A stretch of 22,082 nucleotides of DNA from Armatimonadota bacterium. GTDB lineage: Bacteria; Armatimonadota; Zipacnadia; Zipacnadales; UBA5352. The stretch is taken from contig JAYENL010000269.1 of NCBI GenBank assembly GCA_034722055.1, positions 1 through 22,082 of the forward strand, in the 5' to 3' direction. Below are positions 1 to 1,760 of this stretch, one piece after another. Below the pieces are notes generated by a model that had not been told where the DNA came from, made no database searches, and saw only the letters and a list, made by a program, of their open reading frames with translations. Both the position numbers and the translations under genes were made by a program. How positions within the stretch are numbered: position 1 is the first letter of the stretch; each line of letters opens with the position of its first letter.

Positions 1-74
1 CCCTGCCCTGCGGCGGAAAAGAGAGACGTCAGATCCCGCCCCACGGCAGGAGACGCCCATTCTTCAGCAGTCAG
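1..74 (+). other. 3' part of a putative structured intervening sequence replacing the 5' end of the DUF1559 gene
   Basis: In-frame translation of 3-74 (LPCGGKERRQIPPHGRRRPFFSSQ) has no GFTLIELLVVIA motif. Imperfect hairpin 2-16/36-50 (CCTGCC/GGCAGG, GGCGG/CCGCC). The element's 5' end is outside the window. Confidence 0.5.
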
Positions 75-677
75 ATCATTGCGATCCTGGCAGCCATCCT
101 GTTCCCGGTGTTCGCACGAGCCCGGGAGAAGGCCCGCATGACGTCATGCCTCTCGAACGTCAAGCAGATCTCTCTGGCGTGCGCCATGTACCAGCAGGAC
201 TATGACGAGAGGACCATAGGCGGCAGTGGTTACAAGAACAACTCGATTAACTGGCAGTTGAAGGTGCATCCCTACGTCAAGAACTGGGACGTCTTCCGAT
301 GTCCGAGCAACGGCAGGGGCGAGTTCACGTACTGGGGAGCGCAGCTCTACTACGGCTACTCGCGCCCGACACTGCAGTACACCACCATGGCGGACATCCG
401 GTACCCGGCGCAGACCGTGCGCCTCGGCGACGGCGTGCATCCCGCGGTGGAGTACCCCCGCGGCTTCGCACCCAACGCCTGCAAGGTCGGCAACCCCACC
501 TGCAGCAGCGGCCGTGAGCCGAGGGAGACCGACTTCATCCACAACGGCGGCGACAACGTGTCGTTTTACGACGGTCACGCCAAGTGGATCAACTGGCGCA
601 CCCTCTACGGGGCCGCCATGTACCGCTACAACCTGAGCACTGACGACCCCGGCATCTACTTCGAGGCCAACCCGTAG
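75..677 (+). CDS. DUF1559 / prepilin-type N-terminal cleavage-methylation family protein with H-X9-DG C-terminal motif; 5' end missing or interrupted
   Basis: From 75 the frame reads IIAILAAILFPVFARAREKARMTSCLSNVKQI..MYQQDYDE..PYVKN..VFRCPS..HNGGDNVSFYDGHAKW; stop TAG 675-677. The ORF-track GTG at 108 is the internal Val of FPVF, not a true start. Confidence 0.9.
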   Translation: MIAILAAILFPVFARAREKARMTSCLSNVKQISLACAMYQQDYDERTIGGSGYKNNSINWQLKVHPYVKNWDVFRCPSNGRGEFTYWGAQLYYGYSRPTLQYTTMADIRYPAQTVRLGDGVHPAVEYPRGFAPNACKVGNPTCSSGREPRETDFIHNGGDNVSFYDGHAKWINWRTLYGAAMYRYNLSTDDPGIYFEANP

Positions 678-711
678 CTCAGACGCGGGTATGTCGGAGT
701 CTGCGGTTCGG

Positions 712-744
712 AGGACCGGTCGCGTGCTGTGCGCGGCCGGTCCT
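712..744 (+). terminator. GC-rich intergenic hairpin (possible terminator or mRNA stabiliser, no U-tract)
   Basis: AGGACCGGTCGCGTG pairs with TGCGCGGCCGGTCCT (about 15 bp); non-Watson-Crick positions are G-U on the + strand. Confidence 0.4.
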
Positions 745-764
745 GTCATATGTGGGGATGCCCA

Positions 765-1760
765 ATGAAGCGGACGCTGCGGGGCCTACTTGTGCTGGCC
801 GCACTGCTGTGCGTCTGGGCGCTGCTGCGCTGGTGGCTCCCGGCGCTGCTGCGTCCAGAGCCTGAGAGGCGCGTGATTGTGACGGAGCCCCCGATGGTAG
901 AGATGAGACCCCTCATCGTCCGCGAGCCGCAGCAACAGCGGTGGCGGGACGTGGCGGGCGTGGCCTACGATGAGGCTTTCCGCCAGAGCTTCGCGTATGG
1001 CTCCCCGGGCCACGCGGCGAGGATCCGGTGCCGGGCCGAGGGCCAAACGCTGCACGGGACGATCATCGCCCGCGGCCTCAAGCCCTGGTTCGCCTATCAG
1101 CTCAAGCTGGTCGGGGCGGCGCCACTTCGGGGCACATCCGAGGAGGACAACACCGGCGATTCCGCCACGTGGTCAAGCTGGCGGCTCGGCCGTCTGGGGC
1201 GATGGTGGTGCGAGGACTGCCAGTGGAACGTGCTCGATGAGGATCTGGCCGAGCACCTCTCGGAGGGGCATGACGTTCGCGGCTACGTGCTCTTCGACTG
1301 GTTCGTGACCGACGCCAACGGCGACGCCGAGCAGGACTTCGTCATCGATACCAGCCTGCACGTGCTGTGGCGCGAGGAGCAGCGCGATCGCGGCCGCCAC
1401 GACACGGCGGTGCGGCCGTATGAGCTGCGCCGGGGCGACTACGGCTACGGGCCGGACGCCCCGGACGTCGAATGCGTCGGCATCTACGGGGAGTGGGAGC
1501 CGGATCGCCCGCGGCCGGGCCGAGTCAGGCTCCCGGCAGGGCAGTATCAGGTTCGGCTCAACCTCACCGAGGAGAGCTTCCACGCCAACATGGACGATGA
1601 GCGCATGCTGGAGGGCGGCGGCTTCTGGGCCTGGGTGCTGGAGGCCGACGTGAGCTTTGCGGTGAAACCCATCCCGACCCGCGCGAGCCGCCCGGGGTGT
1701 ATTCCCGGGTCACATGAGGGCGCCGGCCTGCTGTGGCGGCTCTTCAGGCGCCCGACGTGA
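765..1760 (+). CDS. hypothetical protein with N-terminal membrane anchor
   Basis: ATG 765 after GGGGA; MKRTLRGLLVLAALLCVWALLRWW hydrophobic N-terminus; GC3-biased codons; contains a CxxC...H...H motif. Confidence 0.75.
   Translation: MKRTLRGLLVLAALLCVWALLRWWLPALLRPEPERRVIVTEPPMVEMRPLIVREPQQQRWRDVAGVAYDEAFRQSFAYGSPGHAARIRCRAEGQTLHGTIIARGLKPWFAYQLKLVGAAPLRGTSEEDNTGDSATWSSWRLGRLGRWWCEDCQWNVLDEDLAEHLSEGHDVRGYVLFDWFVTDANGDAEQDFVIDTSLHVLWREEQRDRGRHDTAVRPYELRRGDYGYGPDAPDVECVGIYGEWEPDRPRPGRVRLPAGQYQVRLNLTEESFHANMDDERMLEGGGFWAWVLEADVSFAVKPIPTRASRPGCIPGSHEGAGLLWRLFRRPT

Follow-up and report, generated by a model that had tools for sequence, protein, structure and literature searches.

The window analysed here, a stretch of 22,082 nucleotides of Armatimonadota DNA, starts at the first base of contig C269 (JAYENL010000269.1), so nothing upstream of it is assembled. 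A reading frame is open from 3 to 677, and within it the family motif of prepilin-like DUF1559 proteins, IIAILAAILFP, begins at nt 75; the 24 preceding codons are unrelated to the family and include no ATG, GTG or TTG. The fragment matches PF07596 (DUF1559) with an E value of 3.9e-8 and TIGR04294 only weakly (16.5 bits, under the cut-off of 19), the leader being absent, and the downstream frame is free of stops over 200 codons. The initial annotation had described a family match from nt 75 behind foreign, startless sequence and a downstream gene without stops, and both descriptions were borne out. Its hairpin near the window start fared less well: the inverted repeat exists (15-nt arms, 87% paired), but it only modestly beats shuffled sequences (z -2.2, with 8 of 200 shuffles equally good) and is not conserved among related elements. 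The features of this region are collected in Table 1. The remaining window (729-22082) looks ordinary and holds GH123-like, DUF4838, CoA-binding/DNA-binding regulator, DHDPS, DUF7544, SPFH, DUF4861, AP_endonuc_2 and URO-D-like genes, together with several ORFs lacking a Pfam match.

Table 1. Features at the start of the window
Feature	Positions	Strand	Basis or remark
Final 74 nt of an IS1182-family insertion sequence, within its 3' non-coding region (199 nt in the source genome)	1..74	+	Same end at C250, C176, C106 and C28
Hairpin in the right end of the insertion sequence, arms 2-16 / 36-50	2..50	+	No conservation among relatives
Right terminal inverted repeat	60..74	+	Agrees with the left repeat at 14/15 bases
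Right-hand 5-bp target-site duplication (ATCAT) at the midpoint of the target palindrome	75..79	+	Duplication seen in complete elements elsewhere
3' arm of the interrupted palindrome coding V-I-A-I-I-A-I	80..86	+	Site unoccupied in the G001 orthologue
3' remnant of a prepilin-like DUF1559 / H-X9-DG gene that lacks its start codon and prepilin leader	75..677	+	PF07596; G001 orthologue

The interrupted gene and its family

A simple truncation of the gene and an assembly mis-join at 74/75, both of which the initial annotation had allowed for, were ruled out by the repeat ends, the read depth and the recurrence of the joint in other assemblies. Four brine-metagenome runs from one study (X1 to X4) were available. 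In X1 and X2 a single contig at single-copy depth spans positions 51 to 1500 and thus crosses the joint, with only 24 letters to its left, fewer than the 31 that the bridging rule asks for, and joints of the same kind were found in dozens of other assemblies.

In a genome of the same genus (G001) the orthologue is intact: it shares 91.6% identity over 191 aa, has the same gene next to it downstream and represents the empty site. The DNA upstream of this orthologue best matches the start of contig C125 of the source genome (76% over 155 nt; E 1e-19 with the leader included, E 0.19 for the upstream part without it), and C125 ends exactly two bases into the insertion pentamer; as judged from these matches, C125 probably carries the 5' half of the window gene. 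One X1 contig links a leader matching that of C125 to an element end (loose end at 86) that may be a right end, in which case C125 would not be the partner or the locus would have been rearranged. In X4, the window gene (75-539) carries a left end (record 29, depth 6.2, like its neighbours) and differs by a few SNPs, and the opposite orientation at the same site reflects either an independent insertion or an inversion.

The source genome (G000) contains 54 DUF1559 leaders, eight of which run into an element, while a ninth (C125) breaks at the site, so at least 9 of the 54 are interrupted. Bases 2-4 of the terminal repeat spell TGA, TAG or TAA in the leader frame at all 106 matched N-side junctions, and an in-frame stop is present at 78 of 79 cluster ends, the exception being L137, whose 5' junction has no stop and whose N-side end was missed by the pattern. 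Since the stop lies at the junction itself, an insertion produces a clean null and the gene is knocked out. The interrupted gene would yield a leader peptide of 16-18 residues at most, and the 3' part in the window is probably a recent pseudogene fragment. Downstream frames are intact in 7 of 7 cases in the source genome, as is expected because the copies are recent and near-identical.

One intact paralogue (L319) exceeds the cut-offs of TIGR02532, PF07963, PF07596 and TIGR04294 and thus combines the N-terminal methylation motif, the DUF1559 domain and the H-X9-DG motif. In Fimbriimonas, 79 pseudopilin-like genes have been reported (PMC4072686). Some paralogues of the source genome stand in tandem clusters of 2-5 with near-identical leaders (C95, C57, C72 and C319), and an N-gap lies inside one DUF1559 copy of C95.

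Element anatomy and transposase

Window positions 1-74 are a repeat that recurs at four other contig ends of the source genome (identity 100%, 100%, 100% and 98.6%). At C106 the repeat precedes another IIAIL half, and at C250, C176 and C28 it adjoins the reverse complement of a leader half (M..RGFTLIELLVVIAI). A search with the terminal motif alone recovered 16 element ends in this genome. Five are of the window type and five of a second type (C154, C230, C203, C275 and C249); the other six bound three complete 106-bp elements (C57, C64 and C149), each of which sits between the two halves of one gene. Ends of the second type enter the N-terminus of a transposase 113 nt inside; the local 68-aa N-terminal piece is 99% identical to the transposase P0001 (510 aa), and the longest right-end copy (C28, 224 nt) opens with the last seven codons and the stop of P0001. 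As the second-type ends read into the transposase and C28 matches its C-terminus, window positions 1-74 form the right end of an element roughly 1.85 kb long. This length is inferred as 113 + 1533 + 199 nt, the middle being absent from the assembly; full-length copies in the source genome are known as ends only, never on one contig. For the copy in the window, the transposase gene is on the same strand but upstream of where C269 begins.

The single ORF is flanked by terminal inverted repeats that match at 14 of 15 positions in the source genome, and 32 complete relatives measure 1757-1888 bp. Read depth over positions 1-49 reached 8.2 times that of a single-copy contig in X1, 9.2 times in X2 and about 6 times in X4, indicating that the population carries more copies than the five assembled. 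In each of the multi-copy genomes examined, elements faced either way with respect to the host gene. The 106-bp elements have the features of MITEs, being short, non-coding and multicopy, with the terminal repeats of the family and the same target duplication; the three copies of the source genome are 99-100% identical to one another and about 81% identical to copies in two other genomes. This identity (C57, C64 and C149 against L022, L049 and L081) extends over the whole length of the MITE, and the terminal repeats vary, equalling the local insertion sequence ends in G014 and differing from them at two bases in G000. A further element of 198 bp (L008:1430-1630) is reduced to the left end and the beginning of the transposase, its deletion reaching exactly to the 3' duplication. 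A read-through fusion of transposase and pilin was also considered and discarded, since the transposase is read in a different frame from the one left open across the right end, and the sole nearby start codon of that open frame varies among copies.

P0001 passes the IS1182 model NF033551 (333 bits against a cut-off of 270) and contains the PF05598, PF13751 and PF01609 domains. Across 135 sequences, D144, D257 and D324 are invariant and E455 is nearly so, and the catalytic aspartates are presumably to be sought among the first three. An AlphaFold model built with these 135 sequences reached a pLDDT of 95.6 (an earlier model from 12 sequences, at 53.5, was set aside), and structural alignment placed Tn5 transposase first (Z 16.7, rmsd 4.5, 267 residues aligned) and piggyBac second (Z 13.3, rmsd 5.8, 279 aligned); in the model, therefore, the DDE residues are predicted to lie on an RNase H fold. 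No PDB sequence matched the transposase at E<=0.1, and no Foldseek match to the model was found at E<=0.001. Residues conserved specifically in the clade fall in a helical insert (155-245) and elsewhere, making the insert a candidate target-binding region. The near-identical copies, the empty orthologue and the opposite orientation in X4 point indirectly to transposition activity.

Target site and specificity

The codons V-I-A-I-I-A-I of the prepilin-like genes spell the palindrome GATCGCG-ATNAT-CGCGATC. Among unoccupied sites in the source genome, all 15 perfect and all 36 degenerate occurrences (ATnGCnATnATnGCnAT) lie in the DUF1559 family. The palindrome arms alone occur 183 times, of which 36 are in the family; the centre must therefore matter, and yet off-target insertions carry other centres. 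A tyrosine-recombinase site with a 7-bp core, an idea drawn from the palindrome, was dropped when the DDE transposase and the 5-bp duplication were found.

In the source genome, 15 of the 16 element ends lie at the same codon of DUF1559 genes, and the off-target end (C249:127) is inside another transposase gene, presumably IS4-like, of which no intact copy is assembled. Loci fetched by transposase similarity gave the same picture in 42 clusters at 95% identity, with 85 of 86 readable ends on target. This set comprised 94 distinct ends, after exclusion of seven fragments (L202, L204, L214, L217, L219, L220 and L222) and of loci below 36% identity other than L137; 79 ends join a gene half, five match the site with a short flank, eight are too short and two are of other kinds, one of the latter (L196) proving to be a variant gene half. 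At 68 loci with at least 36% identity, the left end was not found in 13 and the right end in 20. A search of five other genomes with the terminal repeat only placed 93 of 94 ends on target; these genomes were chosen for their many junctions, and the 96 matches (95 distinct) included one chance match (L230), two variant prepilins interrupted at the same codon (L285 and L301) and one true off-target (L315). The on-target rate of the clade in these dispersed protein-coding paralogues is thus about 99%, a description rather than a test, as kin are not independent. Four off-target flanks (C249, L151, L315 and one in X3) keep a near-match of an arm and not of the centre. The initial annotation had proposed that an element targets this conserved multicopy site and had advised looking for similar inserts at the same codon in paralogues and related genomes; such inserts were found in both, and the proposal proved correct.

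In a quick tree, 41 on-target transposases group in a single branch (SH-aLRT 99) together with five whose flanks are short or were not found; the on-target enzymes make up 42 clusters at 95% identity and 16 at 70%. L137 (34% identity) lies outside this branch on a long branch of its own, yet uses the same site. The junction pattern was matched in 24 of 67 genomes of the order (none with the reversed control), of which 19 were judged by eye to be real and five chance, and among 401 genomes of the phylum only G225 added a paired match, other matches outside the order being single and chance-like. Among the GTDB junction matches listed, the named records with genuine junctions belong to Armatimonadota or WS1, plus one labelled Chloroflexota; the 57 unclassified records among the at least 129 matches listed are chance-like except for a divergent prepilin (L126). 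The GTDB pattern contains the target itself and was therefore not used for specificity. The clade is found in one Armatimonadota order and is specialised for one codon of the multicopy DUF1559 genes.

Insertion duplicates the 5 bp ATNAT at the palindrome centre, as exact direct repeats in 10 of 14 short elements and in 15 of the 18 long elements that have an N-half on one side and a C-half on the other. The 14 short elements are without exception of this N-C type; among the 32 long elements, 14 have N-N or C-C flanks, most simply through assembly across a collapsed repeat. In the source genome the left and right duplications pair in only 3 of 5 cases; we tentatively attribute this, like the N-N and C-C joins, to collapsed assembly. 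Wobble bases are alike at occupied and empty sites, and no preference for perfect palindromes was seen, occupied sites being no more perfectly palindromic than empty ones, so that neither hairpin strength nor wobble-base read-out is supported. The four mismatched short elements are all perfect inverted repeats.

A non-native, complemented central base (ATG) was observed at 12 of 106 junctions on the N side, at 2 of 109 on the C side and at none of 63 intact sites (Fisher p 0.005 between the two sides, with junctions that are not independent). Fill-in of a coding-strand hairpin would give such an N-side bias; carry-over of the donor flank and later correction of the palindrome are alternatives. 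In five relatives (G011, G014, G016, G026 and G027), five of five junctions with a complemented centre are left ends on the N side. In a hand count over these relatives and the source genome, about 60 ends fit a transposase antisense to the target gene and 37 a sense orientation, a mild bias.

Target recognition and comparison with known systems

The reading that we consider probable is that window positions 1-74 belong, as its right end, to a DDE insertion sequence of the IS1182 family that targets the DUF1559 codon by directly reading out the palindrome, with the gene family as its safe haven. A transposase dimer bound to the two ends would recognise a degenerate palindrome of 17-19 bp (ATnGCn-ATnAT-nGCnAT) through contacts between protein and DNA, needing no guide RNA; strand transfer with a 5-bp stagger would follow at its centre. 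At times the transposase may act on a hairpin or cruciform form of the site, and this would account for duplications in which the central base is complemented on one side. As the palindrome occurs only in the DUF1559 family (about 54 members in the source genome), each jump kills one paralogue and spares other genes, and the multicopy family would thus serve the element as a safe haven. Recognition by the transposase itself is inferred.

We regard it as unlikely that the same insertion sequence is directed by a host protein or a DNA structure (a bound host factor, a cruciform or a transcription-induced hairpin) rather than by sequence read-out. IS1272, a member of the IS1182 family, is described as targeting hairpins of unrelated sequence (PMC4923244, PMC5678879); the present target can fold (-8 to -12 kcal/mol), the complemented centres resemble coding-strand hairpin fill-in, and a sister clade inserts at a fixed 11 nt from TTGACA, suggesting protein tethering in the family. 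However, terminators and other hairpins are unused, 15 of 16 and 93 of 94 ends lie at one sequence, and perfect arms are not enriched at occupied sites.

In that sister IS1182 clade, 30-32% identical to P0001, the right end lies exactly 11 nt before TTGACA at 5 of 5 loci with enough flank (L203:3109, L206:2372, L209:2121, L211:3105 and L212:2389), and one left end (L205:1031) has TTGACT at the same offset, which looks like targeting of -35 promoter boxes, possibly via RNA polymerase. The offset is absent from three further left ends of the clade, and from L201 and L215, which are more distant. A small ORF also appears to precede the transposase gene in the elements of this sister clade.

Direct read-out by the transposase was also weighed against a switch useful to the host, in which precise excision or flipping would toggle pilin-like genes or swap promoters or leaders among C-terminal cassettes. 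The fold resembles that of piggyBac, and piggyBac excises seamlessly; the long elements show N-N and C-C joins; and in X4 the window gene has a left end where the source genome, X1 and X2 have a right end. Several SNPs set X4 apart, so that an independent insertion would explain the last difference. Whichever way the element points, the gene is dead; no empty allele was seen in X1 or X2, where the contig is unbroken from 51 to 1500 (contigs drop rare variants), and the 63 intact sites carry no excision footprints. With 14 of 14 short elements of the N-C type as well, the recombination joint for C-terminal cassettes suggested in the initial annotation found no support, and we consider a switch very unlikely. 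Doubtful, too, is a further-reaching view in which this clade, about 99% specific as a one-protein DDE system for a 17-19-bp coding palindrome, would also excise precisely or flip in the manner of piggyBac, the insertion sequence and its MITEs acting as reversible pilin switches and the enzyme as a ready-made, site-specific integrase needing neither RNA nor accessory protein.

High specificity is also shown by IS110/IS1111 elements, in which a DEDD recombinase is guided by a bridge RNA to repeated host sequences, and the 3' non-coding region of the present element, consistently long (84-199 nt in 39 clusters, 140-200 nt in the form that would yield a guide), folds in some members, two of them at z -4.7. 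We nevertheless consider RNA guidance highly improbable: the enzyme is of the DDE and not the DEDD type, the target is constant across the clade, unlike that of a reprogrammable guide, and the 39 3' regions match the target no better than shuffles (best 12-mer 9.08 against 8.95, a comparison that a short bipartite guide could escape), conserve no motif beyond the terminal repeat and share no conserved fold (median z near -0.3). The 42 5' regions gave a best 12-mer of 8.93 against 8.35 in shuffles, probably owing to the ribosome-binding site. Rfam models found no match at E<=1 in window positions 1-800 and none at E<=0.1 in seven loci that hold complete or incomplete elements, a search that a family unlike the Rfam models could escape.

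Group I introns and IStrons occupy fixed positions in conserved genes, and the fixed insertion codon, the intact downstream frames and the G at this end of the insert would fit the RNA splicing or translational bypass, restoring the prepilin, that the initial annotation had put forward as possibilities; this is scarcely credible for an insert with the anatomy of a DNA transposon that sits in either orientation, brings an in-frame stop, ends in C rather than G at 33 of 79 cluster ends, has 106-bp MITEs at the same site and gave no intron match in the Rfam search, its intact frames being those expected of recent copies.

Palindrome targeting is already known in the IS1182 family (PMC5678879 and PMC4923244, both citing Siguier 2015). 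The present elements share with IS1182 members such as IS1272 the transposase family (NF033551, PF05598 + PF13751), short terminal repeats, palindromic targets and both orientations, and pathway c of Fig. 13 in PMC5678879, as drawn there with the loop duplicated, fits their geometry. IS1272 uses sequence-variable hairpins, mostly terminators, deleting part of them and making no duplication (PMC5678879, PMC4923244); the present clade, in contrast, inserts at one fixed coding sequence, preserves both arms and generates a 5-bp duplication. The ISAba32 subgroup of IS1202 (bioRxiv 10.1101/2022.12.17.520857) likewise shows strict targeting within a DDE subgroup, a 5-6-bp duplication, a safe-haven argument and a mechanism given as unknown; unlike the present elements, which lie inside a protein-coding gene in both orientations, its members stand beside XerCD sites (xrs) in one orientation and leave the sites intact. 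Pokey and the R elements of eukaryotic rDNA also persist at one conserved site of a multicopy gene family, although these are eukaryotic elements with an RNA gene as target, and Pokey inserts widely elsewhere as well (PMC3315735). A search of the openly accessible literature listed no paper on an insertion sequence aimed at DUF1559 genes or prepilin leaders, or on this fixed coding target.

Long fixed targets are rare among simple DDE insertion sequences, and here one target has been kept across transposases of 16 clusters at 70% identity. The clade, for which sequence search returned no solved relative, therefore offers a clean system for studying how an IS1182 transposase picks its target, and if the enzyme alone gives the specificity, it would be a candidate for a compact site-specific integrase. 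The elements resemble a bacterial counterpart of rDNA-targeting elements, with a dispersed protein-coding family as the safe haven; they prune the pilin-like repertoire of their hosts and break assemblies at DUF1559 genes. If the reading as a switch were true, the insertion sequence and its MITEs would give reversible on/off control over members of a large surface pilin-like repertoire.
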